The notes under the pieces: model-generated
Database searches by the model: none
What the model saw: only the letters and a program-made list of their open reading frames with translations
What the model was told of the DNA's origin: nothing
In this document: positions 4,854 to 54,800 of the stretch, one piece after another
Layout: every line of letters begins with the position of its first letter
How positions within the stretch are numbered: position 1 is the stretch's first letter
Position numbers and translations under genes: made by a program
DNA from: Candidatus Omnitrophota bacterium
GTDB taxonomy: Bacteria > Omnitrophota > Gorgyraeia > 2-01-FULL-45-10
Assembly: GCA_030695905.1 (NCBI GenBank)
Contig: JAUYOL010000001.1
Location: 2,023-66,022, forward strand
Direction of reading: 5' to 3'
Length of the DNA: 64,000 nt

Positions 4854-6045
4854 GATTTCCTCCTTTTTTTGAAAACGTTACACGTAAACCGACCAGTGCG
4901 GCTATTATCAATAAACCCTGGGGTATGATGGTCTGCCAGTAGGGATATATTCCGAGAAACGGCGCACTTGGGCCGCTGATTATTAAAGACGGATCAATGA
5001 GCCCGCCCTCTATAAGTTCCATTATGCCTTTTCCCGCAAAGACAAATGCCATGTAATAGAGAAGGGCGCTCGTAGCGATAAAAAACGGTTTTAACGGTAG
5101 TCTCATGCTTCCAAAACGGACTCCTATAAATACGGCGGTGAGCGCAATACAGCCGATAATAAATCCGCCGAAAATAACCCCTACTCCTGCCGCGCCCTGG
5201 CCTGGCACAAGCGCGGAATAGAAAAGGACCGTTTCCGCCCCTTCACGATAAACCGCCAGGAATGCGGCAAACCACAAGGCATACATACTCCCTGTGGTCA
5301 ATGACCTGTCCACCTTACCTTTAATATAGCTCATCCATTTATGCGCCTCCACCTTGCTGATCAACCAGAAGCTCACGAAGAAAAGAACAACGACCGCGAT
5401 GAGCATGGTAATCCCTTCCATAATTTCCTGATTAGCGGCATTGATACGAAAGACCCACTTTACCAATATGCCGGTGATAATACTTAAGGCGATCGCGATA
5501 ATACAGCCGTGATAAATTATCTTTACCTTATCCTTATGCCCTGTCTTGATTAAATAGGCTATGATGGCGCATATGATAAGGATTGCCTCGAATCCTTCCC
5601 TTAAGATAATGAAGAATGAATAGAAAAAGAGCGCCGCGGGGGCTTGCGACTTTTCTTTATTGCGATCCAGCTCGTGAAGCGTTACTTTAAGCTCCGCGAG
5701 CAACTCTTTTATGGAATCCTCTATGACTGGGAATGGGTCGCCTCTTTTTATCATTTTACGGATTTGAGCGAATTTAAATTCCAATTCGGAATTACGTTTG
5801 GCGGAAATGGTTCTCCGGATGGGGCCTTCCAGGTATTCAAAATTTTCGAAGTATGCGCTTTCCCATTCTGCCTTCGCGTCCTTCATCTCGCCTTTTCTAT
5901 AAAGCTCCAGGGCCCTTTCGGAATGTTTCTCGATCCCGACGACATAATCACTTAATTTTTTTCCTGCACCGCTATCCTGCGCCACACAAGCATGCGTCTG
6001 AAAGGCGAGAAACAGCGCCGCAATCAGCATTATCTTTCGTATCAT
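4846..6045 (-). CDS. FTR1-family high-affinity iron permease (EfeU/FtrC-like) with long N-terminal periplasmic extension
   Basis: Two REXXE motifs (REGFEAILI, REGAETVLFY) in TM helices. The track ORF starts at TTG 6078, but ATG 6045 (MIRKIMLIAALFLAF.. signal peptide) with GAGG upstream is the more plausible start. Confidence 0.75.
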   Translation of the reverse strand: MIRKIMLIAALFLAFQTHACVAQDSGAGKKLSDYVVGIEKHSERALELYRKGEMKDAKAEWESAYFENFEYLEGPIRRTISAKRNSELEFKFAQIRKMIKRGDPFPVIEDSIKELLAELKVTLHELDRNKEKSQAPAALFFYSFFIILREGFEAILIICAIIAYLIKTGHKDKVKIIYHGCIIAIALSIITGILVKWVFRINAANQEIMEGITMLIAVVVLFFVSFWLISKVEAHKWMSYIKGKVDRSLTTGSMYALWFAAFLAVYREGAETVLFYSALVPGQGAAGVGVIFGGFIIGCIALTAVFIGVRFGSMRLPLKPFFIATSALLYYMAFVFAGKGIMELIEGGLIDPSLIISGPSAPFLGIYPYWQTIIPQGLLIIAALVGLRVTFSKKGGNHG

Positions 6046-6067
6046 CTCGGTAAAAACCTCTTTCTTT

Positions 6068-6086
6068 ATTGAAAACAATTTTCAAT
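6068..6086. promoter_or_regulatory. Palindromic operator ATTGAAAAcaaTTTTCAAT (Fur-box-like) upstream of the FTR1 operon
   Basis: Perfect 7-nt inverted arms TTGAAAA/TTTTCAA seen in sequence about 25 nt upstream of the FTR1 start; a near-identical copy lies upstream of fur. Confidence 0.4.
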
Positions 6087-6102
6087 TACTAAACAAAAAA
6101 AA

Positions 6103-6531
6103 CTATTTCTTATGTTTGCTGCATATCCCGAATATCTGAAGCTTGTGCCTCAACGGGGTAAAATGCTTTTCTTTCGCTAATTTTTCCTGCAACTCCTCTA
6201 TTTTCGGCTTTACCACTTCCGTATAGCTTCCGCATTTGACACAGATAAGATGATCGTGATGTTCATGTCCATATCGATGCTCAAACCTTGATATGCCGTC
6301 CCCAAAATCGACCTCATTGCAAAGGCCGGCTTCTTCCAGCAATTTCATCGTCCTATATACGGTAACATAGCCTATTTTGGGGGTTTTTTTCTTCACGATT
6401 TTGTATAATTCGTCCGTAGAGAGGTGCATCTCCACCGAGAGGAATACTTTCAGTATCTCTTCCCTCTGAGGCGTGTATCTTAGACCCTTCTCCCTGATAA
6501 ACTTTTCCAGTATCTCGATCTCTTTTTTCAT
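6103..6531 (-). CDS. fur: Fur-family metalloregulator
   Basis: DNA-binding wHTH N-terminus plus HEHHDHLICVKCG metal-site motif. Likely ATG start at 6531 (MKKEIEILEKF), whereas the track used GTG 6543. Confidence 0.8.
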   Translation of the reverse strand: MKKEIEILEKFIREKGLRYTPQREEILKVFLSVEMHLSTDELYKIVKKKTPKIGYVTVYRTMKLLEEAGLCNEVDFGDGISRFEHRYGHEHHDHLICVKCGSYTEVVKPKIEELQEKLAKEKHFTPLRHKLQIFGICSKHKK

Positions 6532-6559
6532 GTCATCTTCCACCTTTGTATGATTTTTT

Positions 6560-6578
6560 ATTGAAAAGTGATTTCAAT
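6560..6578. promoter_or_regulatory. Second copy of the ATTGAAAA-N5-TTTCAAT palindrome upstream of fur
   Basis: ATTGAAAAgtgaTTTCAAT seen about 30 nt upstream of the fur start; shares arms with the 6068..6086 site. Confidence 0.4.
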
Positions 6579-6620
6579 AATATCACGCTCATCGATTCCT
6601 GTCAAGAATTATTTTTAATT

Positions 6621-7571
6621 TTATCTAAAAACCTTCTCTAAGATAAAACCGCAGGACATAAGCAGAGAGAAAACGATAATCAGCGCAATCGCTGAGGCAT
6701 TAGCGGGAAGAAGTTTCTGAACATCCATATAGTGTTTATGCGCTGTCTTTGCCGTTTTAAAACTAAGTGGAGCGCTCAAGAATACCAAAACGCACGATAG
6801 GGGAAAGATTTTCATTATCAGACCTATCAAGGTAAGTACGAATGCTAGCGGCTGCAGCCAGATAAAAACCAGCGCCGCGTTTTTTTTACCTAAACGCACT
6901 ACCAGATTTTTTTTACCGGTCTTATCATCTGCTTCAAAATCCGGAATTTCATTTATCCATAGAACCAAACCGGCTAGAATACCCGTAATAACGCCGGCAC
7001 ATAGGGACACCTTGTCAAAATGCCGAACTTGCGCGTAATACGCACCGCTCACCAAGAGTGGACCAAAGCCTATAACTACAGACAATTCGCCTAAGCCTCT
7101 GGCGGAAAGATTGACCCGCGGCTCGACATAGCCGACAGCCAGAAACATCCCGATTATACCCAAAACCAATACAGGCCAGCCGCAAAGAACGACCAAAACC
7201 AAGCCGATAGCCGCGCCCGCACTCAAGAGCCCGATGCCTGCCTTAAGCAAAGTCTGCGGCTTAATAAGGTTTTCTTGTATAACCCTTGAGCCGCCGCTAT
7301 ATGGCGTAACGGTTTCATTAATATTATCCGTTCCGCTCAAAAAGTCAAAATAGTCGTTCAAGCAGCTTGCGCCGAAATGGATGCAGGCCGAGCTCACCAA
7401 AACCGCTAAAAATAAGCCGAAGTTAAAATACCCTTGGTTATAGGCTATCGCCGTACCCAGGAGAGTTAAAACAATGGTTAATAAAACAAATGGCGGGCCT
7501 AAAACCTTAAGCCAGGCATAAACCGTTTCTGTAGGCGACTGGGCAATAAGCCGCCGAATCTTAACCGGCAT
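6621..7571 (-). CDS. UbiA-superfamily membrane prenyltransferase (MenA/UbiA-like)
   Basis: 316 aa, polytopic; Asp-rich NDYFDFLSGTD motif characteristic of UbiA-family prenyltransferases. Confidence 0.65.
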   Translation of the reverse strand: MPVKIRRLIAQSPTETVYAWLKVLGPPFVLLTIVLTLLGTAIAYNQGYFNFGLFLAVLVSSACIHFGASCLNDYFDFLSGTDNINETVTPYSGGSRVIQENLIKPQTLLKAGIGLLSAGAAIGLVLVVLCGWPVLVLGIIGMFLAVGYVEPRVNLSARGLGELSVVIGFGPLLVSGAYYAQVRHFDKVSLCAGVITGILAGLVLWINEIPDFEADDKTGKKNLVVRLGKKNAALVFIWLQPLAFVLTLIGLIMKIFPLSCVLVFLSAPLSFKTAKTAHKHYMDVQKLLPANASAIALIIVFSLLMSCGFILEKVFR

Positions 7572-7579
7572 TGCTTAAG

Positions 7580-7759
7580 TTAAAATAAGGTTGAAACGAT
7601 GTAATTGCCGTCTTTCTTCAGTGCGGGCGAAACGCCAACAGCGGTCTTTAACGCAAAAGCCTCCATTGAAACCGATTCGGGTGAAGCATATTTTTTTGAC
7701 CCTGTACCCTTTTTGATATCCTGGTTCTTAGTCACTCCGGTTGATCTCATCTTGCTCAT
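7580..7759 (-). CDS. Candidate 59-aa precursor/partner peptide downstream of the PqqD-like gene (not in ORF track, below 60 aa)
   Basis: Hand translation MSKMRSTGVTKNQDIKKGTGSKKYASPESVSMEAFALKTAVGVSPALKEDGNYIVSTLF. Strong SD GGGAGGG 7 nt upstream of ATG 7759; starts 24 nt after the PqqD-like stop and ends 8 nt before the UbiA start. Confidence 0.3.
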   Translation of the reverse strand: MSKMRSTGVTKNQDIKKGTGSKKYASPESVSMEAFALKTAVGVSPALKKDGNYIVSTLF

Positions 7760-7782
7760 GCCGTTACCCTCCCTTTCTTTAT

Positions 7783-8097
7783 TTATTCTTCCAATATTCC
7801 TTTTTCAACAAACAAACGTGCACATTCACTAACTTCAGATAAAAGACTTGAGAAGTCTGTAGTCTCAAATTCACCTGCCACTTTTTCTGCGATTGCTTCA
7901 ATGTTATTGTTACCATCGCAAAGCTGGAAAATTTTCGCGGCTACCGGGTTTAATATCCTCGGTAGAGCAAAATCATCCTTATGGACTATTACAATCTGGT
8001 CATTTTCCCCATCCAGTCTCCAACGTAAATTTGTGGCTATCCTGGGTTTACTCATAATGGATATCTTCAGTGACATAGGGGATAGTCCTCTCCGCAA
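7783..8097 (-). CDS. PqqD-family peptide chaperone (RiPP recognition element-like)
   Basis: 104 aa; ..LNPVAAKIFQLCDGNNNIEAIAEKVAGEF...LFVEKGILEE matches the PqqD pattern; overlaps the rSAM gene by 50 nt. Confidence 0.7.
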   Translation of the reverse strand: MRRGLSPMSLKISIMSKPRIATNLRWRLDGENDQIVIVHKDDFALPRILNPVAAKIFQLCDGNNNIEAIAEKVAGEFETTDFSSLLSEVSECARLFVEKGILEE

Positions 8098-9079
8098 TCA
8101 AATCCTTCATCTGTTCGTATTTCTTTATAAATGAAATCACTTCCGGCCGCTTCCAGCCTTCCTTTAAATATTCTTCCCAAATTTGTTTTATCGACTGCTT
8201 ACGTAAATTGCCATAAGTGAAAGGCAATAGCAAGTCTAGCCTTAAAGTTGCTTCCGGAGTAATGATGCACCAGATATTGGGAGCAGCCGAACGCACGCTA
8301 AGGTAAGTCTTTAAAACCTGCTTTTCCGGAGAGGGTGCAATGATTGTCATTTTATCAGAATATTTCTTGGCCGATTCATCCAGTGATTTAAAAAATTCGG
8401 TATACTGTTTATCGCCCAGGGCGATCGAAGCGGAATTCAGGGCAGCCCGGCCTGTCAAGACCAGCATATCCGTGACAAAATACTCCAGATCCATTTCCGC
8501 GCAGAGCGCGATCACATTACCCACATCGAAATAATTCACGCTGGAGGGCACAAAGGAAACATGGACGCGCACGCCGTTATTTTTAAGCAGTTTTACCGCA
8601 GCGACGGATTTTTCCCAGCTGCCTGCCAAGCCTCTCGCTTTTTCATGGGTTTCGGCCGTTGAGCCGTCTATGCTGATCTGCACCCACTTTACCTTGAGTC
8701 GCGCCATTTCTTTTGCCGCGGCCTCGTCTACCTTGGTGCCATTGGTAATTATCCCTACTTGTATATCATATTCTCTTAACTTGCTGACGATCTGCGCCCA
8801 GTCATCGCGTAACAGTGCCTCGCCGCCGGTAAGATAAACCTCGAATACCCCTAATTCTCCCAACTGTTGGGCGATCTTAATAGCTTCGGAGGTATTAAAT
8901 TCTTTTGCGGAAGACTTTGAATTAGCATTGTAATAACAATGTACGCAGGAAAGGTTGCATTTATTGGTCAATTCCCAAAGCCCAAAAATGGGGGCCTTAA
9001 AATACTTTGGCAGTATCTCTTTCTTATTTAAGGTATCGATGCGCTGCGTAAAACTATTTGTAAATGTTGGCTCGGACAT
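8048..9079 (-). CDS. Radical SAM enzyme, PqqE-like N-terminus, with cysteine-less SPASM-like C-terminal remnant
   Basis: CNLSCVHCY (CxxxCxxC) and GGEALL glycine-rich motif. The C-terminal ...IWCIITPEATLRLDLLLPFTYGNLRKQSIKQIW resembles the SPASM tail (GNL..sl..IW) but carries only 2 Cys in total. Confidence 0.8.
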   Translation of the reverse strand: MSEPTFTNSFTQRIDTLNKKEILPKYFKAPIFGLWELTNKCNLSCVHCYYNANSKSSAKEFNTSEAIKIAQQLGELGVFEVYLTGGEALLRDDWAQIVSKLREYDIQVGIITNGTKVDEAAAKEMARLKVKWVQISIDGSTAETHEKARGLAGSWEKSVAAVKLLKNNGVRVHVSFVPSSVNYFDVGNVIALCAEMDLEYFVTDMLVLTGRAALNSASIALGDKQYTEFFKSLDESAKKYSDKMTIIAPSPEKQVLKTYLSVRSAAPNIWCIITPEATLRLDLLLPFTYGNLRKQSIKQIWEEYLKEGWKRPEVISFIKKYEQMKDLIAERTIPYVTEDIHYE

Positions 9080-9167
9080 AAGTTAGCATTTTATCTTGTT
9101 AACCTTATTAAATCAAGGGGAATTCCACTATTTTAAATTGTGCCAGTGACTATTTATCGAGGGTTTT

Positions 9168-12100
9168 TTAAATGTGCTTTCCGGACGAGAGACTGCTAAT
9201 ATCGACCGTTCCGTGCTTCATCTCATATTTCCATTTCCAAATCGCATATATGGGCGGGTAGACTAATAACTCCATAATAAAACTTGTAAATACACCGCCT
9301 ATCATGGGGGCCGCGATACGTTTCATCATGTCAGCGCCGGTGCCCATGGACCACATGATCGGAATTAAACCCATAAACATAGCCATAACCGTCATCATCT
9401 TCGGCCTTATGCGCTTTACGGCGCCGTGAATTATCGCTTCCTTCAGATCTTCGTATGTCTTCATCCTGCCCTCTCTTACTCTCTCATTATATGAAAGATC
9501 CAGGAATAACAGCATAAAAACACCTGTTTCCGCGTCCAGGCCCATCAGCGCTATCATGCCTACCCAGACAGCGATAGAAATATTGTACCCAAGTATATAC
9601 AGTATCCATATCGCTCCTACGAGGGAGAATGGCACCGCGAGCATGACTATGGAGGCCTTTACCGGAGACTTGGTATTCATGTAGAGCATGACAAATATTA
9701 TAAAAATAGTTATCGGTATCACAAGCTTCAGTCTTTCTCTGACCCGCATCATATTTTCATACTGGCCGCTCCATTGTAAGCTATACCCTGTGGGTATTTT
9801 GAATTCTCTGTTTACTATATTTTTTGCCTCTGTAACGTAACTGCCGATATCGCGGCCGGCAATATCGACATAGACATAACCTGAAAGCATGCCGTTTTCG
9901 TCCCTTATCATGGCGGGGCCCGTGACGAGGTGTATGTCGGCGAGCTGGCCAAGCGGTATCTGCGCGCCGCTCATCGTAGGAACAAGTACGCGGCGAAGTT
10001 TATCCAGATCATCTCTTAATTCACGGGCATAACGCACATTAACCGAATACCGTTCTCTGCCCTCAATAGTAGTTGTAACACCTTCGCCTCCTATCGCTGA
10101 CATTATCACCATTTCAGCATCTTTTATTGTCAGGCCATATCTGGCCAGTTGGTCGCGTTTAATATCAAAATCAACAAAATAACCGCCTGTGACACGCTCG
10201 GCATAGATAGAGCGCGTGCCTTTAACGCCCTTCAAGATCATTTCAAGATGCGTGCCTATTTTTTCTATTTCATCCAGATTCGCGCCGTATATTTTTATTC
10301 CCACAGGCGTGCGCACCCCTGTCGATAGCATGTCTATCCTTGCCTTGATAGGCATGGTCCAGGCATTCGTTACGCCGGGGAATTGGAGTTTTTCGTCCAA
10401 TTCATTTATTATATCTTCCCATGTAATACGATCTCTCCAGATGGCCTTAAACGGCGCCTGTAATATATCCGGCATCCATGAATACCAGCGATGCACTTTT
10501 CTCCATTGATCTTCCGGCTTCAATATTATTGTGGTCTCCATCATGGAAAAAGGCGCCGGGTCCGTGGATGTCTCCGCCCTTCCCGCCTTACCGAATATCC
10601 TCTCAACCTCAGGCACAGTCTTTATAACTTTATCCATGGTCTGAAGCAGCGCCTGAGTCTCTGTTACGGATATGCCGGGTAAAGTGGTGGGCATGTAAAG
10701 TATAGAGCCTTCATTCAAAGGCGGCATGAATTCGTTCCCCAGCTTAAAATATATGGGGATGGTTAAAATCATTAATACTATGGCCGCTATTATTGTGGTC
10801 TTGCGGTATTTCAGGACAAACTTACAGGCAGGTTCATAAATAGCGAATAAAATTTTACTCACAGGATGTTTTTCTTCTGGATAATATTTTCCGACGGTAA
10901 TCGCATTGACTATATTTGATAACCATTTGGGCTTAAAGTGCTTATAATCCATTCTTGTAAAGAGCATGCGCAGCGCAGGGTCGAGCGTGATGGCCAATAT
11001 AGCGGCGATCGCCATGGCCAGGTTTTTGCTGGCCGCGAGCGGCCTGAATAATCTTCCTTCCTGATCGACGAGAGTAAATACCGGCAGGAATGCCACTGCT
11101 ATGACCAGCAACGAAAAGAATACTGATGGGCCCACTTCCTTTAAGGCCTTCAGCCTGACCTCATGAAAATCCCCGACGCGCCCTCCCGACTGCCACAACT
11201 CCAGCTTCTTATAGGCATTCTCCACTTCCACGATTGCCCCGTCGACCAGAACTCCTATTGATATCGCTATGCCGGATAGCGACATGATATTTGAGGTCAA
11301 CTTGAGTCCATATAAAGGTATGAATGAAAGCAGCACCGCAATCGGTATTGTAACAATGGGTATTATAGCGGAAGGAAAATGCCATAAAAATATCAGGATG
11401 ACAATACTTACTATTATCATCTCTTCCGTCAATTGATGCTTCAAGGTGTCGATGGAGCGTTTTATTAACTCCGAGCGGTCGTAAGTGGTAACGAGCGCTA
11501 CCCCTTCGGGTAACGAGGCCTTGACCTCCTGGATCTTTTCTTTAACACTGTTGATCACATTAAGGGCGTTCTCGCCCTGACGCATGACGATTATACCGCC
11601 TACTGTATCGCCCTCGCCATCAAGGTCAGCGACGCCGCGGCGTATATCCGGCCCTAGAACAACCGCGCCGACATTTTTTACTAAAATGGGCACTCCGGAC
11701 TTGTCAACGCTGATAACTATATCCTCGATATCTTTGACGGATTTCGCGTAACCTCTGCCGCGTACCATGTATTCTTTGCCTGAAAATTCCACGAGCCGCC
11801 CGCCAACGTCATTATTTCCGTCGCGGATGGCGTCCACTATTTTAGCTATCGGGATGTTGTACTGCAGAAGAGCGGATGGGTTAACATTGACCTGATATTG
11901 TTTCTGAAAACCGCCTACGGACGCGACTTCTGCCACGCCCGGAACACTCTGCAGCCAATAGCGCAAATACCAATCCTGGAACGACCGAAGTTTTGCCAGG
12001 TCGTTTTTACCGGATTTGTCGACAAGCGCGTATTGGTACACCCAGCCCACGCCTGTCGCGTCAGGCCCCATTTCCGTTTTTACGCCTTCGGGCAATTTGG

Positions 12101-15070: not shown

Positions 15071-17290
15071 TTATCCGCTTCTTTTGTACCTTCTCATTAA
15101 CAAAGAGTTTCCTACTACCGAAACAGAACTAAATGCCATTGCCGCCCCAGCTATCATTGGATTCAGCAAAAATCCTGTAAAAGGATAGAGCAGCCCCGCG
15201 GCAATGGGTATTCCGACAATATTATAAAAAAACGCCCAAAAGAGGTTCTGCCTTATTTTACTCATGGTATATCCCGACAATTCAATAGCAGCGACCACAT
15301 CCCGCAGGTCATCCTTTATCAAAGTAATATCCCCGGATTCAAGGGCTACGTCCGTACCTGAACCTATAGCAATACCCAAATCCGCCTGCGTCAGGGCAGG
15401 GGCATCATTTAGTCCATCGCCAACGAACGCGACTTTTATCCCTTCGGATTGTAAGCGCACGATCTCCTTTAGTTTTTCTCCCGGCAGTACTTCGGTTAAA
15501 ACTTTATCTATGCCCAGCTCCTTCGCAATTACCTGCACTGTGCGCCTATTATCTCCCGACATTATAAGTATTTCTTTCCCCATTTTTTTAAGTCTAGAGA
15601 TTGTATCATGCGCAAAATTTTTTAAACTATCTCTGAACGCCAAGAGCCCAGTTAACTTTTCATCTTTTATTAAATACACTACGGTCTTGCCTTCATTTTC
15701 CAACCTTCTCACATCCTCTTCCGCCATGCGGACATCAATACTTTTCTTTTGCATGAGGCTGCGGTTTCCCACAATAATTTCGCTGCCATTTATACTGCCT
15801 ACTATGCCATTGCCCGGCAAAGACACGAATTTATCTACCGAATAAAGAGAAATTTTATTCGACTTCGCGGCGTTTATAACGGCTTCGGCTAAAGGATGTC
15901 CCGATTTGTTTTCTAAAGATACGCCGAGCCGTAAAACTTCCCGTTCGTCACAATTGTAAGTTTTTATATCCGTAAGCTGCGGCTTACCAATAGTCAGGGT
16001 CCCGGTCTTATCGAATATTACTACCTTAACCTGCCCGGCTATTTGTAAAGAGGCCGCGTTTTTGATAATAATCCCATTTTCCGCGGCCTTACCCGTGCCT
16101 ACCATAACAGCCGTTGGTGTTGCTAATCCCAATGAGCATGGGCAAGCAATGATTAGTACGGATATAAAAGCACTTAGCGCAAAAACAAAATCTTTTCCTA
16201 AAAAAATCCAGCCAAAAAACGAAAGGCAGGCAATTATCAATACTGTTGGAACAAAGATGGCGGCGATTTTGTCTGCCAACTGCTGAACAGGAGCCTTAGA
16301 CCCCTGCGCTTCTTCAACCAACTTTATTATCTGGGCCAGAGTTGTTTCGCGGCCCACCTTTGTCGCTTTAAATTTAAATGATCCGCTTTTATTTATTGTT
16401 CCCCCGATTACGGTATCGCCAATTGTCTTTTCAACCGGCATGCTTTCACCTGTGACCATAGACTCATCTACGCTTGAATAACCTTCGATGATCTTGCCAT
16501 CAACCGGAATTTTTTCTCCGGGCTTAACTATAATGATGTCACCTATAATTAATTCCTCAACGGGCATTTTTTCTTCCATGCCATTTCTTACAGTGGCGGC
16601 TATTTTTGGCTTAAGACCCATCAGTTTTTTGATCGCTTGTGATGTTTTCCTTTTGGAAATCGATTCGAGGTATTTTCCCAACAAGATAAAAGTGGGCAGA
16701 AAAGCGGCTACTTCATAATAAAGATTTTGCATGCCAAATGACTTATCCTGTGACCATATCATAATGCTTACAAATAGACTATACAGGTAAGCGCTCCCCA
16801 CCCCCAAAGCCACCAGGGTATCCATGCTGGCTCGATGTAGTTTAACTATGGTAGAAAATCCTCGACTGAAAAATTGATAGCTGCAGATTAAAACCCCTGT
16901 CGCCAAAATAAACTGCCATAATGCCATGGCCTCCATAACAAACTCAGGAACTGGTAAATCAACACAGGAACCCATCGAGATATACATCAGTGTGGAGGAG
17001 AGCGTTACCGCTATAATAAATTTTAATTTTAAGCGGTTTGTTTCTTTATCGGATTGTCTTTCCCTATTTAAAGAGGCATCTTCGGGCTCCGCGCTATAGC
17101 CTGTTTTTTTAATCGCTGTTATGATATCGAGTGTATTTATTGTTTCGGGATTATACTCTATATATGCCTTTTCTGAAGCAAAATTGACACGAGCGTTCTC
17201 GATGCCCTTAAATTTCTTTAAAGAGATCTCTATATTGGCTGCGCAGGAGACGCAATGCATCCCGAAAATATTTAAAATGATTTTTTTCAT
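15071..17290 (-). CDS. copA: Copper-translocating P1B-type ATPase
   Basis: HMA domain [15 protein letters not shown] motif [30 protein letters not shown]. Confidence 0.9.
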
Positions 17291-18348
17291 TATTTGATTC
17301 CCATTTGCAGAAGATATTTCTTTACACTTAGGGATGCCTTAGCCCCTTCTCCCGAAGCGATAATTATTCTTTTTCCAAAACAATTGGTAACATCGCCGCA
17401 AGCGAATATGCCTTCGACATTGGTGGAACAGTCGGGGTTTATTGCTATTTCTCCTTTTTCATTTAACTTAACCAGGTCCCTGCAAAATTCAGTGTTTGGA
17501 ATAAAGCCCATCTCGATGAATACGCCACTACAGGAGACCTGTTTTGTTGTCAACTTATCGGAAGATTGGATGACAACACCATCTATTCTATCTTCCCCTT
17601 TGATTTCAATAACAGTATTGTTCTCGATGATATTTACAGCACCGCCCCTTTTAAGCTCTTTAATATTATATGGGTTGGCGGTAAGCCTATCTTTTGATAT
17701 AAGCGATACTTTGCATCCCGCATTTTTAAGTTCGGTAGCTGCCCCAACAGCAAAATCTCCTCCCCCCACAACAACTACATCTGCTTCTTTAAATAACGCG
17801 GCGTCCTGGACATAATAATATGAAACTCCGCGCCTCACAAACTTCTCTTCACCTGGTACACCCAGTGTCTTTTGTTTTATCCCTGTAGCAATGATAAGCG
17901 CATAAGTAGTTATGCTGCTTTCGTCCTTGGTAAATACCTCAAAAATGTTTCCTTTCCGGATAATCTTAACAACTTCGTCTATCTTGTGCTCTAAGTAATG
18001 CTCATGTAAAAATTGACGCTCAAATTTCTCCACGAGCTCTTTCCCGCTAATAAAATCAAAACCCATGTAGTTTTTAATTTTTGCGCTGTTAATAGCCTGA
18101 CCGCCGATATTATTTGTTACCACGAAAGTGTCGATTTTTAAAGCAGACGCATAAACAGCTGCTGTCAATCCTGCCGGGCCTGCGCCGATAATAACCAGGT
18201 CGTAAACATATTTCGCCATGGCCTCCTCTGAAGACCCCTTAAATTTTTCCAAGCATCCCTTGGAACAAAAAAAGTATTTTTTGCCTCCAATCTCAAAAAC
18301 GAATTGTTCGCTTTCCACTCTCATGCCGCAAATAGGGTCTTTGATCAT
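17290..18348 (-). CDS. TRASH/YHS metal-binding domain fused to a thioredoxin-reductase-like FAD/NAD(P) flavoprotein lacking the CxxC redox centre
   Basis: N-terminal ICGMRV...YFFCSKGC. Two Rossmann GxGxxG motifs (IIGAGPAG; [12 protein letters not shown]). At the usual CATC position it reads [10 protein letters not shown]. Confidence 0.7.
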
Positions 18349-39788: not shown

Positions 39789-41372
39789 TTATGTCTTTTT
39801 CAATATTACAGACTGCTCAACTATTGTCAGCACAGTATTCACCACCCAGTAAAGCACCATACCGGAGGGCATGTTATAAAATATGAACCCAAACATTATC
39901 GGCATTATGACAAGCATTATCTTTTGCTGCTGTCTTTGCTCTTCGGTAACGGCTCCGCCCATAACTTTAGACGATATCTTCTGCTGAACAACCATAAGCG
40001 CTACCATCATCAGTGGTAATACGTTTATGCTGTTGCCGAATATCGGCAAGGAGAATGGTATGCCCACGGCGTCCGGCATAGAAAGATCGCTTATCCATAA
40101 AAAGCTGGCGCCCCTTAAATCTATCGATTTTGTAAGCGCCTGGTATAACGCGACAAATATCGGCATTTGAAGTAAAAGAGGCAGGCAACCACTTAATGGA
40201 TTTATCTTATATTTTTTGTACAGCTCTAATACTTCTTTATTGAGTTTTTGCGGATTATCTTTGTTCTGCGCCTTGAGCTTTTCCATTTGTGGATGCAGTT
40301 CGTGCATCTTCTGCATAGACTGGAAACTTTTTAATGTGAGAGGGAAGAGCACTATATTTAAGAATATCGATATAAGTATTATCGACAGCCCCCAGTTGTG
40401 AACGAGCTTATAGAAGAAAGCTGTGATCACCAGCAACAGCTTTGCTATGCCACCAAAAAATCCATAATTTATCGACTCTTCAAATTCTAAGCCTAACTTC
40501 TTGAGTTCCGCACCGATACTTGGACCCGCATATAAAACGAATTTATTCTCCACTGAAGAATTTGCGGGGATCAAAAGCTTTTCCATTTCGATTCCGGAAT
40601 ATATCTTATCTCCTGCGGCATATCCGTGATACTGACTTTTTGTTTGCCCATACGGCTTCATTATGAGCGAGAAATATCTTGTTTTTGCCGCAACCCAACT
40701 AACTATCCCTGGATTTACAATAACATTTTTGTTGGGTCTTTTGAAACCAACCGTCTTACCATCAACTTTTGAGATTACCTCAATTAGATTCTTGTCCTCG
40801 GTCCTTGGTTCAACCAGGCCCGATCCGGATATAATTTTGTATCCGAGTTCGGCAGGAGACGATGAGTAGTTTTTCACTAAGAGTTGTAACTCTATTACAT
40901 TGCTTGAGTTGCGTAAAGTATATATTTTTACTATCTCCAAATTCTTTATCGCCAGGGTGTAAATAATCTTGTTGTCATCGCTATCAAGTTTATATGCCAT
41001 TTGATTCAATGGCAAAGCGCCAAGCGTGTCATTAATGGAAAAAAGATAGTTCGAGGGGGTTTTTTCTTCAACCAGCGGCATCGGGTCGTTAGATTTCAGT
41101 TTTTTATAGTTCCTTAACTCTATTTTCTTGATAGCGCCGCCGATATTGCTGAATGTAACTATATATCTGTCGGTAGATGCCAAAAACTCCTTTTCGTCAG
41201 CGGGAGGGGTTGGCGTAAGATACTGTATATTTTCAACCTCTTTTTCTTTTACCACCGCGGCTTCCTGCGTCTTACCGGGCATGGGCGCTTGTTTTGGCGA
41301 CGGAAACAGGTATTGGAACCCCACTATTATAAGCACTGAGAAGGCTATAGCTAAAATCAGTTTTTTTTCCAT
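39789..41372 (-). CDS. yidC: Membrane protein insertase YidC
   Basis: 527 aa; N-terminal TM, large periplasmic domain, 5-TM C-terminal core. Confidence 0.85.
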   Translation of the reverse strand: MEKKLILAIAFSVLIIVGFQYLFPSPKQAPMPGKTQEAAVVKEKEVENIQYLTPTPPADEKEFLASTDRYIVTFSNIGGAIKKIELRNYKKLKSNDPMPLVEEKTPSNYLFSINDTLGALPLNQMAYKLDSDDNKIIYTLAIKNLEIVKIYTLRNSSNVIELQLLVKNYSSSPAELGYKIISGSGLVEPRTEDKNLIEVISKVDGKTVGFKRPNKNVIVNPGIVSWVAAKTRYFSLIMKPYGQTKSQYHGYAAGDKIYSGIEMEKLLIPANSSVENKFVLYAGPSIGAELKKLGLEFEESINYGFFGGIAKLLLVITAFFYKLVHNWGLSIILISIFLNIVLFPLTLKSFQSMQKMHELHPQMEKLKAQNKDNPQKLNKEVLELYKKYKINPLSGCLPLLLQMPIFVALYQALTKSIDLRGASFLWISDLSMPDAVGIPFSLPIFGNSINVLPLMMVALMVVQQKISSKVMGGAVTEEQRQQQKIMLVIMPIMFGFIFYNMPSGMVLYWVVNTVLTIVEQSVILKKT

Positions 41373-41390
41373 GATATTCCTTTATATTGT

Positions 41391-41600
41391 TTACTTTACA
41401 GGGTCATATCCGCCGCGTGAGAACGGGTTGCAGCGTAAAACTCTCCAAATGCTTCTTACGCCGCCGGAGATTACCCCGTGTTTTTGAACAGCCTCTATGG
41501 CATATTCTGAACAGGACGGATAAAATCTGCAGCAACGTATGTTTATTATTGACAAATACTTACGATAAAACTTCAAGGCCGATATTACTATATACTTCAT
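41391..41600 (-). CDS. yidD: Membrane protein insertion efficiency factor YidD
   Basis: 69 aa; LKFYRKYLS...[11 protein letters not shown]. Confidence 0.8.
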
Positions 41601-41983
41601 ACTAATATCCTTGCTTTTCTGGCCAGGTTTAAAAAAATGTTTTCGGCATCCTTATAAGAAAATTTTACCGCGGGATCTTTTCTCACAACGAGTGTCATGT
41701 CAAATCCGTTTTTGAGTTTCCCCTTGGTCAGTCGAAAAACCTCACGGAACAATCTGCGCACACGGTTGCGCCTAAAAGCTTTCTTGATGCTCCTGGAACT
41801 TATCGAAAACCCTATACGGTTTAGGCTTAAGGTGTTGGGCAGGACTTTTAGAACAAACGGCCCGCTGGATAATGAGCTTCCGGATTTATAGATCTTCCTG
41901 AATTCGCCCGTTTTTATCAGGCGCTCTTTTTTTGGGAAAGTCCGAGGACCAGATAATGCAGTTTTCTCGTCGGAGCCCATCAT
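41597..41983 (-). CDS. rnpA: RNase P protein component
   Basis: 128 aa, basic; rpmH-rnpA-yidD-yidC synteny. Confidence 0.8.
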
Positions 41984-42117
41984 ACGGTGAGCTTATATCT
42001 GCCCTTCTGTCTTCGTCTTTTTAAAACAGCTCTGCCATGGCGCGTGCGCATTTTCTTCCTGAATCCGTGCGTTCTCTTTCTCTTAATATTAGAGCCGGCT
42101 TTTAAAGTATACTTCAT
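41980..42117 (-). CDS. rpmH: 50S ribosomal protein L34 (not in ORF track)
   Basis: Hand translation [45 protein letters not shown]; stop TGA overlaps the rnpA ATG (ATGA). Confidence 0.75.
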
Positions 42118-42325
42118 TGGTTTGGTCCTTTCGTAAATTTATTGGAAGATTGATTATACCACAACGTCTTGCCGAGTCAATCTTTTTGTTTTTGCTTGCA
42201 ATTACAATTTTTTTCCTCTATAATGGGTGCGATTCTGGAAGGTTTTTGTTAACAACCTGTGTATAACCTATGTGCTACATATGGAAAAACGGCGTATTCA
42301 CTGTGGATAATTTTTGGCAGGATAA
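42118..42325. other. oriC / dnaA promoter region with DnaA boxes
   Basis: TGTGGATAA (42302-42310) and TGTGTATAA (42258-42266) are reverse complements of TTATCCACA-type boxes. Promoter TTGCAA-N17-TATAAT at 42195-42223; AT-rich; divergent rpmH and dnaA. Confidence 0.6.
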
Positions 42326-43699
42326 ATGACAAGCAACGACTCTTCAATCTGGCTCAGGGCCAGAGAATTTATAAAGAAAGATCTCGATAACGACCAGGTA
42401 TTTAATATTTGGTTCGGCCCTATCAGGCTTGTGTCTTCGACAGAAAGCTCCATAACGCTGGAGGTCCAGAACAAGTTATTCCAGGAGATGCTTCTCGACC
42501 GCTATCTGAAGATCATAAATTCCAGCGTCGCTAAATCGTGCGGCAAGGAGATGCGCGTTGAATTCGTATTAACGGAGTCTTCCGACGCGCCCAAACAGGC
42601 GCAGCCTCAGGATATACCAAAAACTCCCGGCAAACCATTCTGGCCTTTTGCGCGCGAAAAACAGGATACCGGCAAAGAGATAGGCTTAAACCCGAGATAT
42701 ACATTCGATAGCTTTGTCGTCGGGCCAAGCAACCGGTTCGCGCATGCCGCGACAAACGCCGTATGCGATTCCCCCGCAAAAGCATATAATCCTTTGTTCA
42801 TCTACGGCGGCGTCGGTTTGGGTAAGACCCATCTAATGCACGCTATCGGCCACAAGGCTTTACAAAGGGCTCCGAAGACAAAAATATTATACATATCCAG
42901 CGAGGACTTTACAAACCAACTCATAGCTTCTATACAAAACAGGACCACCATGAAGTTCCGGGAAAAATACCGCAATGTCGATATCCTTCTCATAGATGAT
43001 ATACATTTTATCGCCGGCAAGGAGTCGACACAGGAAGAATTTTTCCATACATTCAATACTCTTTACGACGCGCATAAGCAGATAGTCGTTTCCAGCGACA
43101 GGCCGCCAAAAGAGATACAGTCTCTCGAGGAAAGGCTTGTCTCCAGGTTTGAGTGGGGGCTTGTCACCGACATCCAGCCGCCTGATTTTGAAACGCGAAT
43201 GGCCATATTGAAGAAAAAGTCCGAGCGCGACGGAATAGTTTTGCCCGACGATGTATACTACTTCCTGGCGGAGAAAGTAAAGTCTAACATCCGCGAGCTT
43301 GAAGGTGCGCTCATACGCGTTGTGGCATACGCGAAGCTTATAGGCAGAGAGATAACCGTGGATATGGTTAAAGAGGTTTTAAAAGACATGATCCGTGAAG
43401 GTGAAAAAAATATAACGATCGATTTAATACAGAAAAAGGTGTGTGAGTATTTTGATATCAAGCTATCTGATATGAAGGTAAAAAAGCGTTCGCGGGGCAT
43501 AGCATACCCAAGACAGATAGCAATGTATTTAGCCCGTCAGCTCACGGATTACTCTCTACCTGAAATAGGCGAATACTTTGGCGGCAGGGACCATACCACG
43601 GTAATGCATGCCTTTGATAAGATACAAAATGATCTAAAGATTAAGAAGGGTTTGAGTAGTTTGATTGAAAGGGTTACCGAAAACATACAGTCGTCTTAG
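42326..43699 (+). CDS. dnaA: Chromosomal replication initiator DnaA
   Basis: GGVGLGKTHLMHAIG Walker A; AAA+ domain III and C-terminal DNA-binding domain IV. Confidence 0.95.
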   Translation: MTSNDSSIWLRAREFIKKDLDNDQVFNIWFGPIRLVSSTESSITLEVQNKLFQEMLLDRYLKIINSSVAKSCGKEMRVEFVLTESSDAPKQAQPQDIPKTPGKPFWPFAREKQDTGKEIGLNPRYTFDSFVVGPSNRFAHAATNAVCDSPAKAYNPLFIYGGVGLGKTHLMHAIGHKALQRAPKTKILYISSEDFTNQLIASIQNRTTMKFREKYRNVDILLIDDIHFIAGKESTQEEFFHTFNTLYDAHKQIVVSSDRPPKEIQSLEERLVSRFEWGLVTDIQPPDFETRMAILKKKSERDGIVLPDDVYYFLAEKVKSNIRELEGALIRVVAYAKLIGREITVDMVKEVLKDMIREGEKNITIDLIQKKVCEYFDIKLSDMKVKKRSRGIAYPRQIAMYLARQLTDYSLPEIGEYFGGRDHTTVMHAFDKIQNDLKIKKGLSSLIERVTENIQSS

Positions 43700-44952: not shown

Positions 44953-49076
<4,124 letters not shown>

Positions 49077-51874: not shown

Positions 51875-54800
51875 ATGTTTCTATACAATATTAGATATAG
51901 CGTATTATTTAAGGCTATGGCCCTGGCGTTGGTGTGCCTATTTGTAGCTAGTGATCTCATTTACGCTACCCCAGAACTCCGCACTGCTTCTCAATCCACT
52001 CTCGCCGCACTTACACAACTTAACAAGCCTGAATTTAGAGAAGCAGCTGCCATCAGAGAATGTCTGCTTGCATCCAAAGGAGCGGATAAGTATATAAATG
52101 AGCAAATCCCCAAAGAAAAAGGCATCTTTGGCAAAGAATGGGAATCTCAGCGAACCGAACGCGTAAACATATATGATACAGAGCTAAAAGGTCGAATAAA
52201 CGGTAAGCCAATAGCAGGACTGGATTCCGTGCTTTTTATCAAGCTCGCAGGGTTTTTGGCTTCCACAGGCCAGCCATTTCAGGCTGATCTTGCCGGCAAA
52301 GGTTATGACGGTCTTCCAGTAGTGTATATCGACAGCGCATTGTGCAATACACCTGACAAATGTATTCAAAAGCACGAGATAGACCAAATCCTGCAATGGG
52401 AAGACCTAAGAGTAAATATGCTACATATCGCCGATAAGAAAGCGATGAGAAGATGGGTCAGAAGATATATCAACGATGCCGACCAGGCGCTTCAAGGTAC
52501 CCCTTACGAAGGAATGAACTCACGCCAGATCGCAAAACTCTTCCACGGATATTCCTATCCTTTAAGAGATCCCTATAAAAAATTATTCCGTGAAACTGAC
52601 TATGACTACGAATATATAAGGACGATGCTCTCCATTTATGGTACCGACGAAGAATCGGGCGAGCTTAAACTAGTCGCGCGGCGCGAAGAAACCCCCGCGC
52701 CCCACGTTAGGCCAGCGGCCGCGGGAACTGGAGTAGCACAAAATATGCTATCCCCGGAGTTTACCTGGCTTATCATGACTTCCCAGGTCACTACTGACAT
52801 AGAATCGATTTCTACTTATTTGAAGCCGATACAGGACACGATAGAAAGTTTAGACAGCTCCGGCGCAAGATTTTCACCTTATACCAGAAAGGTTTTAGGT
52901 GATGCGCGCAAACAAGGAGCTTACCTTTGCGAACAATTAAAAGTTATGATCCAGAAAACAAAAGGATTGTCCTCTGGGCCCATAAACAGACAAGCAGCAG
53001 CTTCCCTGCTTAATAAAATCGACAATGGTGGGAGGTTTGACGAGGTATTGGGTATCTTTTACCACGATGTATGGGATATCATAAGAGAAACACCTCCCAC
53101 AGAGCAAGCAGAATCATTAAAAGATGCATTTGAAAAGCTCCATAGCCGGCATGACCGTATCCGTTCGCAATTACTCGCCCTTGCACATCCGCAGATATTT
53201 ACAGGTAAAACGGGCGCGCTTTGCTACCCTCCCTGGCTTATAAAAATTCCTGAAGCACCGAGAAGTCATATCGAAATTAATCTTTGGGAGCTTCTAAGCG
53301 GGCGCCGTGCCATCTCATATGATTCTTGGCCGTCAAAGCATGAAAGACGAGAACACATTCTCCCAATCGAAAATGAACACAGGTTTTTTGAAAGACGCTT
53401 TGCGAAACTCCCTGAATTAATCACAAGCGGCGCATGGATGGGAATTAACAGAGACTTTAAGACTTTTGCCATAGAGCTTATCTATCTTTACGGGCTTTCT
53501 CTGGATTATTTTCGAATTCAGAAGCAAGTCTTGGAAAAGGCCGCGATAGATCCAGACCAGGTAAAGGACGTTCTCGACCTGGGAACAAATTCATGGCCTT
53601 ATGCTTGGTGCTTTGAAGAAATCTTTCCCAATCTTGAAAAGGCGTATGGCATTGAGGGTAGATGGAAACATTCCAAGGAATTCCAGAATTTTTGGGCGCC
53701 CTTATCCGGCTTGGATCCGACTAAATATAAAATCATCAACGGAGACTTTCTGGAGATAGAAGAGATACCCGAACTCTGGCCGTCAAGCGAGACGGGAGGC
53801 TCTTTCGATCTTATTTTTGCGCATGGTTTTAAGCCGGACTTTAAGGTATCGAATGGCGCTAATGAAGACGCGTATTATTACAAATTATTGCTCTCCGCAA
53901 GCAGGTTGCTTAGGCCCGCGGGGCACATTGTTTTTATTATCAAAAAAGATGAATTGGATAAATTCCGTAAGATGCTCGCGCTTTTAGAGGGTCGGAGCTG
54001 GGCCGACAGGGTGATGAACATGGCGGGCTTTGCGCAAATAATTTATGAAGATGTCGATGTTTTTGTTATTTCTCAAGAAGACCTTGTCAGACATGAGAAG
54101 ATTTTGGAGCAAGGAGTTCAAGCCCGCGAGGCCAGACACGAATATGCCGAAGCAGCCGCATTTTATGAAAGGCAAAGCGATCTCGAGGCCGATACGGCCA
54201 AGCCCTATGTTTTAGCGGGAGATGAGTGGCTGAAGGGGGCCGAGTCATTCATAAAGACAGCAAAAAAATGGCGTCGGAAGCCCTCCAACGATGATGAGTG
54301 GATCAGCTGGATGCTTGAAAACGCTATCGATCGATATAGCCGCTATTTTAAAGCGCCAAAACAACGGAAAGATGATATGTATGTCCGTCAACAACTCGAT
54401 AGGATCTATGAAATAATAATAACAATGCGTCAGGGGTTTTTTGATGACGAAGAAAGCCGATTGTTTGTTTCGAAATTCCCAAAAAAGCCCGCTACCGATT
54501 CACAGCGGGATCAGCTGATAAATTATTTTTTCCTTAAAGACTCCGGTGGAGATCCTTTAGAAAGCGCTCCGGGCAGCCTGCCATTAAATGTGCCACAGAA
54601 TACCGATGCGGACCGTTTAATAGGCGAGGCCCTGGCAGAAATCGAAGCCGGGCAGCGTTTGTTGGTGCAAAAAAAGGCAGAGGCGAAAGCACAAGGAAAT
54701 GCGAGTATTTTGTGGAACCATATACGGGAAAGCAGCATCCCCGATTATGAGCTGCGCCTTCGACTGCTATATCATATGGGGATTTTAAGGGGCAATCTTT

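Follow-up and report, generated by a model that had tools for sequence, protein, structure and literature searches.

A four-gene block confined to a small Omnitrophota lineage may couple radical SAM maturation of a ribosomal peptide to a MenA-like prenyltransferase

The analysis of a 64,000-nucleotide stretch of DNA from a Candidatus Omnitrophota bacterium (assembly GCA_030695905.1, contig JAUYOL010000001.1; the whole stretch is called the window below) centred on a compact minus-strand block of four open reading frames (ORFs) at positions 6621-9079, which encode a radical S-adenosylmethionine (SAM) enzyme, a PqqD-like protein, a 59-aa peptide and a UbiA-family prenyltransferase. The explanation that best accounts for this cassette, which we put forward tentatively, is an Omnitrophota-restricted operon for a ribosomal-peptide-derived product, with polyprenyl transfer as a step of the pathway and a membrane-anchored product that would be used together with an Rnf/Nqr-type complex. 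An earlier sequence-only reading of the same DNA had described four tightly spaced minus-strand genes here, and all four ORFs are indeed present. The cassette is confined to a small lineage of uncultured Omnitrophota, and since species-representative genomes and Joint Genome Institute metagenomes yielded only a few extra family loci, the family is rare.

The 59-aa ORF (7580..7759, minus strand; C-terminus ...NYIVSTLF) is a real gene under purifying selection. It has no family match in Pfam or NCBIfam, it is 100% identical to an annotated hypothetical protein from a Candidatus Omnitrophota metagenome-assembled genome (MAG), and more than 25 distinct homologues were gathered by combining protein searches with translation of the loci. 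The N-terminal ~20 residues are variable and Lys-rich, and the C-terminal ~36 residues are nearly invariant, following the pattern K-x-Y-x-x-P-x3-[SA]-M-x-x-F-x3-T-A-[VL]-G-V-S-P-A-[ML]-K-K-x3-Y-[IV]-x-S-[TV]-L-F-COOH. Over the conserved codons the ratio of nonsynonymous to synonymous substitution (dN/dS) was 0.08-0.26 where computable, with proportions of nonsynonymous differences (pN) of 0.03-0.29 and of synonymous differences (pS) of 0.6-1.0, the latter being saturated; because of this purifying selection the ORF can be regarded as a genuine constrained gene. The core is invariant although the partner radical SAM enzymes are only 53-60% identical. A profile of the peptide searched against 1.84 billion representative proteins returned only seven clusters, all of the same family, and no relatives outside it. 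The conserved core S31-F59 (SMEAFALKTAVGVSPALKKDGNYIVSTLF, 7583..7669, minus strand), which includes Tyr53 and the invariant C-terminal Leu-Phe, is on this pattern of conservation the probable site of modification. A strong Shine-Dalgarno sequence had also been claimed for this gene, and GGGAGGG is found 7-8 nt ahead of its ATG.

The neighbouring PqqD-like gene (97 aa from the conserved ATG, 7783..8076, minus strand) encodes a stand-alone recognition element of the kind found in pathways for peptides that are ribosomally synthesised and then modified post-translationally (RiPPs). Its membership in the PqqD family, proposed earlier, is confirmed by PF05402, where it reaches 28.7 bits and so clears the gathering cutoff (23.4); with the PqqD equivalog TIGR03859, however, it stays at 26 bits, below the cutoff of 46. 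Across 11 loci the motif WRxDGE...LP.ILN..A..IF..C.G is kept, as is the start codon. The 50-nt overlap with the radical SAM gene that had been reported holds only if translation starts at TTG 8097; all relatives start the protein at a conserved 'MSxxISI' ATG, which lies at 8076 in the window and reduces the overlap to 29 nt. A single-sequence AlphaFold2 (AF2) model was poor (predicted local distance difference test score, pLDDT, 58.6), and its top fold matches, PqqD (3g2b) and TbiB1 (5v1u), were not significant. In lasso and LPP pathways, [Y/W]xxP is the leader motif to which discrete RiPP recognition elements attach (PMC13381572). By analogy, the Tyr24-x-x-Pro27 (YxxP) segment of the peptide (7679..7690, minus strand), which is invariant across all homologues, is the probable docking site for the PqqD-like protein.

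The radical SAM enzyme (343 aa, 8048..9079, minus strand; PF04055, E 1.7e-26) belongs to a family of ~48 clusters at 53-94% identity, set apart from everything else by a score cliff from 433 to 176 bits. It has a GGE motif and the CxxxCxxC motif (C41, C45 and C48; sequence CNLSCVHC, 8936..8959, minus strand) that binds the radical SAM [4Fe-4S] cluster. The protein holds five Cys in total, among which only C41, C45, C48 and C271 are invariant in the family (alignment A1), the last of them (codon 8267..8269, minus strand) being the sole invariant Cys of the C-terminal domain; SPASM/twitch auxiliary clusters are therefore impossible, and a PF13186 (SPASM) match is absent in all family members though present in more distant matches. 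Among solved structures, profile searches ranked SkfB (6efn) best (E 8e-31) and PqqE next (E 6e-17), and Foldseek with an AF2 model of mean pLDDT 77 likewise placed 6efn first (TM 0.70, 25% identity), the top matches being SkfB, PqqE, BlsE, SuiB, MoaA and anSME, each at probability 1.00. Sequence and predicted fold together indicate that the enzyme is a member of the SPASM/twitch peptide-maturase (SkfB/PqqE) lineage that lost all auxiliary-cluster Cys, and Cys271 may be either the remnant of a lost auxiliary cluster site or a hydrogen-atom donor.

Assignment of this enzyme to a curated family was rejected, as every NCBIfam model tried, including AhbD/NirJ and others, scored far under its cutoff (bits/cutoff: AhbD 132/500, MftC 112/265, PqqE 99.8/381.35, SkfB (TIGR04403) 105/300, MoaA 82/325). 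The label 'PqqE-like' used in the sequence-only reading thus holds for the lineage and fails for the SPASM Cys and for the PqqE score, and a match to a well-characterised non-RiPP family such as MoaA, which would have counted against that reading, was not found at any trusted cutoff. The next-nearest relatives that pair a radical SAM with a PqqD-like protein (30% identity; L006 and L007, where L-numbers denote loci of relatives) have no UbiA and an unrelated small ORF. In these two loci (L006:1314-2970 and L007:822-2462) a radical SAM without SPASM matches and a PqqD gene stand with a convergent 70-73-aa Cys-containing ORF by a large NB-ARC/GerE regulator, forming another uncharacterised RiPP-like set; they were set aside as uninformative about function.

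The fourth gene encodes a 316-aa protein (6621..7571, minus strand) whose earlier assignment to the UbiA family is borne out by PF01040 (E 5e-24). Its top NCBIfam models are MenA models and its best PDB match is UBIAD1 (8djk), the heme O synthase and chlorophyll synthase identities being rejected at 19-32 bits versus 157 for MenA models. It is under the cutoff of all newer MenA equivalogs (NF004751, 157/264; NF004749, 130/277). By comparing residues between 46 cassette-clade and 67 other MenA-like sequences, we found the Asp-rich motif residues N72, D73, D76, D82, N207, D211 and D215 to be kept in both sets, and Tyr148 of transmembrane helix 4 (TM4) to be present in 46/46 cassette-clade proteins. 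Gly25 occupies 46/46 cassette-clade sequences at the position of a TM1 Arg found in 66/67 of the outgroup (R25G). Ser69 stands for an Asn seen in 97% of the outgroup (N69S), Ile209 for a Phe seen in 96% (F209I) and Phe66 for Ala (A66F); the N69S and F209I switches adjoin the two Asp-rich motifs, and the clade further carries a ~10-residue N-terminal extension with a conserved Arg6. In AfUbiA, R22 contacts the diphosphate and R22A loses binding of geranyl diphosphate (PMC4106721); the outgroup Arg25 probably corresponds to this residue, a match based on distance from the motif Asn (47 versus 46 residues upstream) and not on alignment. These residue patterns set the cassette UbiA apart as a MenA-like clade of its own, altered at positions that flank the predicted active site.

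The neighbourhoods of relatives show how closely the four genes keep together. Radical SAM, PqqD and peptide genes stand together in every locus with enough sequence, and the co-occurrence proposed in the sequence-only reading extends to UbiA in most loci. In type A loci, whose peptide ends ...STLF, the block runs radical SAM-PqqD-peptide-UbiA (window, L001-L005, L008/L014, L018, L043, L044 and L045), and 11/17 radical SAM clusters on contigs ≥5 kb share their contig with a cassette-clade UbiA, a twelfth having been seen directly (the two were counted as on the same contig where the contigs were equally long). The gap between peptide stop and UbiA start is 8 nt in the window, exactly as first reported, and 5-8 nt across the window, L004, L008 and L043; the gap between PqqD-like stop and peptide start measured 23 nt, correcting an earlier figure of 24. 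A long-chain polyprenyl-diphosphate synthase gene lies ahead of the radical SAM gene in L001, L043, L044 and L018 and after UbiA in L005, and a six-gene Rnf/Nqr-type operon adjoins the block in L001-L005, L019, L043 and L044. In the metagenome loci the block usually has the synthase on one side and the Rnf/Nqr-type complex on the other. The synthase and the Rnf/Nqr-type operon shift position round the block while the block stays intact, and the UbiA is therefore tied closer to the three-gene core than to the synthase.

The six-gene complex itself (L001:1519-7018; also L004, L005, L043 and L044) is a hybrid of Rnf and Nqr. The first subunit resembles RnfC, with Complex1_51K and Fe-S domains (TIGR01945, 238 bits versus a cutoff of 246; NqrA models score much lower), and its last subunit reaches the NqrF equivalog (303 bits, cutoff 295), so that the complex seems to stand midway from Rnf to Na+-NQR. 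Type A blocks also have nearby a Rex-like regulator (L004), IspH, MoeA, AhbC/AhbD-like heme genes and molybdoenzymes. UbiA is followed, with a 4-nt overlap, by a gene for an AhbD-like heme b synthase (466 bits, cutoff 500) in L001 (10590-11657) and L044 (10873-11925), and L043:12367-14928 adds AhbC/NirJ1-like, AhbA/B-like and MoeA genes; the AhbD-like radical SAM gene behind UbiA in L001 and L044 was considered as a member of the cassette and not counted in.

On the preferred reading, in which one pathway joins peptide maturation to polyprenyl transfer, the PqqD-type protein would bind the YxxP segment of the peptide and present its conserved C-terminal core to the radical SAM enzyme, which would abstract a core hydrogen atom, the most plausible targets being Tyr53, the C-terminal Leu-Phe or positions close to them. 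Because the enzyme has no auxiliary cluster as electron acceptor, a redox-neutral or single-cluster reaction, possibly by way of Cys271, would be the most likely outcome. The MenA-like enzyme could then fit the modified aromatic moiety with a long polyprenyl chain, whether this moiety is still part of the peptide or has already been released, and the chain would be supplied by the polyprenyl-diphosphate synthase found beside the block in relatives. The product would be membrane-anchored and probably redox-active and may serve the Rnf/Nqr-type complex that adjoins the block in most relatives. No peptidase or transporter domain is adjacent to the block in ~15 distinct loci, nor is there an immunity gene in any locus, and the absence of protease, exporter and immunity genes fits a cofactor rather than an antibiotic.

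The quinone biology of the phylum offers a further hint. Seymour et al. 2023 (PMC10066038) reported Omnitrophota prenyltransferases without a recognisable head-group route and left the source of the quinone head group unresolved. Neither the 64-kb window (men, mqn and ubi genes) nor any relative's flank of up to 10 kb (Men/Mqn genes) contains such a route. The cassette is carried by GCA_001805575.1, a Velamenicoccia genome of 1.31 Mb and 94.6% completeness, and GCA_040960315.1 is counted among its carriers too. In the supplement of PMC10066038, another Velamenicoccia genome and likely carrier (genome 231, GCA_023819315.1; 92.7% complete, 0% contamination) has KEGG orthology assignments for menA (K02548), pqqD (K06138) and Rnf, and its table is without MenF/D/C/E/B, MqnA/C/E, UbiE and pqqE.

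Several points weigh against coupling the prenyltransferase to the peptide. The pattern in genome 231 is what the cassette would yield, which is a hint at most, as its pqqD and menA are not confirmed as cassette genes, and the pathway as a whole is known here from genes alone. Neither a peptide nor a peptide-derived acceptor is a known substrate for any UbiA-family enzyme. The 64-kb window itself holds no polyprenyl synthase or Rnf/Nqr genes, and the type A loci as a group gather respiratory cofactor genes so broadly that lying side by side in them is, by itself, weak evidence for a common pathway. The UbiA scores 121.1 bits with TIGR00751 (menA), above the cutoff of 102.15, and an orphan MenA can be explained by salvage of 1,4-dihydroxy-2-naphthoate (DHNA) too. 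Finally, type B loci (peptide ...SVLF; L020/L021, L040/L041, L042 and L047) keep the three-gene core, and the flanks at hand contain neither UbiA nor polyprenyl synthase nor Rnf/Nqr genes. The core can therefore work without an adjacent prenyltransferase and the coupling is not obligatory.

In type B the core follows genes for a carbamoyltransferase, two B12-binding radical SAM enzymes and one radical SAM/SPASM protein (L040:4048-9497, L047:2339-9616, L020 and L042), and these loci may tailor the same peptide differently. Neighbour-joining places type B as a single clade within the type A lineages, which suggests that the UbiA-less arrangement arose by a single secondary change. The proposal in the sequence-only reading of one operon for RiPP or cofactor maturation with a prenyltransferase accordingly stands as the best hypothesis for a recurring block, and it is only partly supported because of its genes-only basis, the UbiA-less subclade, the lack of SPASM clusters and a metal context that proves incidental.

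The main rival explanation holds that the UbiA is an ordinary MenA working on DHNA that is made by genes elsewhere or salvaged from hosts or neighbours, and that the radical SAM, PqqD-like protein and peptide make a separate product, for instance a soluble cofactor derived from the peptide. The two would then be co-located only through the habit of Omnitrophota of clustering genes for respiratory cofactors. We regard this as a possible but somewhat doubtful account. It draws on the TIGR00751 score, on UBIAD1 as best PDB match and on automated annotation, which names clade members DHNA octaprenyltransferase, and it would accommodate both type B and the AhbC/D-like, MoeA and molybdoenzyme genes nearby. 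Salvage would also suit the biology: Omnitrophota have been proposed to be host-dependent (PMC10066038), and two reports (PMC12502741; 10.1101/2023.03.13.532228) document use of exogenous DHNA or quinones in bacteria. The constant order of the four genes while the polyprenyl synthase moves is less easily reconciled with mere proximity, as is an enzyme clade that has lost a near-universal Arg, carries two switches beside the Asp motifs and falls under the newer MenA equivalog cutoffs. In L018, a polyprenyl synthase and another MenA-like paralogue, this one with the ordinary RAPF / NLANDY / NEFPD residues, lie directly upstream of the block (L018:471-2368). That operon thus encodes two different enzymes of the MenA type, and with an ordinary one at hand the UbiA of the block cannot simply be the housekeeping enzyme there. 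Outside the cassette, the closest UbiA (46% identity; L046, an archaeal MAG) stands beside a synthase, a geranylgeranyl reductase and Nuo genes, without the three-gene core.

An alternative that we consider unlikely is that the 59-aa product is a small functional protein, for example one that helps to assemble the Rnf/Nqr-type complex or another membrane system or joins it as an accessory subunit, and that carries one radical SAM modification, with the UbiA unrelated or only indirectly involved. A run of ~36 contiguous constrained residues exceeds the need of a small excised cofactor, no locus holds a peptidase, and the strong Shine-Dalgarno sequence suggests high expression. The single invariant C-terminal Cys of a radical SAM enzyme without an auxiliary cluster is moreover suggestive of a possible L-to-D epimerisation via Cys271, which resembles the hydrogen-donor Cys typical of the peptide epimerases YydG and PoyD. 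Against this alternative, the peptide is seen only with radical SAM and PqqD genes and never with Rnf/Nqr genes alone, and Rnf/Nqr genes are missing beside the core in the window and in type B. That the cassette makes an antimicrobial or signalling RiPP for secretion, lipidated or not, is highly improbable: the generic layout of precursor, recognition element and radical SAM maturase is present and type B adds B12-dependent radical SAM enzymes as in heavily tailored RiPPs, but the core is invariant family-wide where antibiotic RiPP cores usually vary, exporter, leader protease and immunity genes are missing from every locus, and the block is embedded in respiratory operons.

Within the preferred reading of a peptide-derived, prenylated product, a bolder version can be entertained, in which the peptide Tyr or C-terminal Phe would become the head group of a new isoprenoid redox lipid, a 'ribosomally encoded quinone'. 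Activation or excision of the head group would fall to the radical SAM enzyme and addition of the tail to the MenA-like enzyme, which would provide Omnitrophota without Men, futalosine or Ubi pathways with a quinone for their Rnf/Nqr-type respiratory complex. We rate this version as improbable.

With respect to transcription, a promoter-like site (TTGATT-17-TAAAAT, 9088..9116, minus strand), recognised only through its consensus match at 9/12 positions, lies in the 88 nt that separate the cusA stop from the radical SAM start; fur is preceded by a far stronger promoter-like site (TTGACA-17-TATTAT). No terminator-like site was found downstream of UbiA, and neither a riboswitch nor any other known RNA came up when 5900-9400 was scanned with Rfam. 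The metal and iron setting stressed in the sequence-only reading is real, with cusCBA, copA and related genes upstream of the cassette and fur and an FTR1/P19 iron-uptake set downstream, and both the window and its closest relatives have the block by itself, flanked by cusCBA and fur. The palindrome ATTGAAA-N5-TTTCAAT occurs in exactly two copies in the 64 kb (6068-6086 and 6560-6578); the promoter region of the FTR1/P19 iron-uptake operon has one and that of fur the other, and the palindrome is likely the Fur box of the organism. Fur control of the cassette was rejected; because the putative Fur box is absent before the cassette, the iron and metal context is judged incidental, other relatives having their blocks in respiratory or quinone-type operons.

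Elsewhere in the window, a pyridine-nucleotide disulfide oxidoreductase (17290-18348) that has a YHS metal-binding domain at its N-terminus lies directly downstream of a Cu-type P1B ATPase (15071-17290). The window carries dnaA, dnaN and gyrBA and spans the replication origin region, the origin itself being probably the yidC-dnaA intergenic region (41372-42326), with parAB close by and dnaN-gyrBA downstream. The gyrB gene (45255-49076) encodes a 1273-aa product in which an intein splicing domain is placed ahead of the Toprim domain, and a giant 1866-aa ORF (51875-57475) has a GNAT acetyltransferase at about residues 1244-1338 as its sole recognisable domain.

If the coupling is real, the cassette would be the first pathway uniting ribosomal-peptide maturation with a UbiA-family membrane prenyltransferase; in the literature searched, no paper joins a PqqD/RiPP recognition element, a radical SAM enzyme and a UbiA, and a quinone survey (PMC13386864) likewise does not. 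It could also explain the membrane electron carrier of small-genome, host-associated Omnitrophota that are without known head-group pathways. The system offers a naturally cluster-less radical SAM enzyme of the SPASM lineage and a MenA-like clade with an altered active-site surround as tractable biochemical targets, and its size of four genes makes it directly testable by heterologous expression.

Compared with known systems, the cassette resembles the cores of pyrroloquinoline quinone (PQQ) and mycofactocin biosynthesis but belongs to neither, its scores lying under their cutoffs and its SPASM clusters, peptide motifs and companion genes differing from theirs. The more distant comparisons concern single components. 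Lasso and LPP systems with discrete recognition elements share the stand-alone PqqD-like protein and an invariant peptide YxxP, and TbiB1 is among the top, non-significant fold matches; the cassette, however, has no lasso cyclase, protease or LPP kinase, and the residue at P+2 is not consistently hydrophobic. SkfB is a peptide maturase and the best solved homologue of the cassette radical SAM by sequence and by fold. It has a fused N-terminal recognition domain and an auxiliary cluster in its twitch domain, whereas in the cassette the recognition protein is separate, an auxiliary cluster is impossible and the TIGR04403 score is under the cutoff. With MenA and UBIAD1 the cassette UbiA shares the fold, both Asp-rich motifs and Tyr148, and relatives of the block often adjoin a polyprenyl-diphosphate synthase; it differs in lacking the TM1 Arg, in the N69S, F209I and A66F changes, in the extra N-terminal segment and in being always preceded by the peptide gene.

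Mycofactocin, a redox cofactor, is made by a core (MftA/MftB/MftC) that likewise combines an invariant peptide C-terminus, a PqqD-like protein and a radical SAM enzyme, and the MftC model gives the longest alignment to the cassette enzyme (residues 23-302). The score, though, is 111.9 bits against a TIGR03962 cutoff of 265 and there are no auxiliary clusters, the cassette peptides all end in Leu-Phe and not Val-Tyr, no homologues of MftD, MftE or MftF are present, and the tailoring partner is a prenyltransferase where mycofactocin has a glycosyltransferase. The PQQ core (PqqA/PqqD/PqqE) differs in that the cassette enzyme is without SPASM clusters and under the PqqE (TIGR02109) cutoff, in that the 59-aa peptide has no Glu-x3-Tyr (no conserved Glu four residues before either Tyr), and in that pqqB, pqqC and pqqF are missing from the cassette loci, a MenA-like prenyltransferase standing fourth instead. 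Like the cassette, the PQQ core combines in one operon a small invariant peptide, a stand-alone PqqD-family protein and a radical SAM enzyme of the same lineage, PqqE being the second-best solved relative; its radical SAM and PqqD genes overlap as well, and its product is a cofactor, not an antibiotic.

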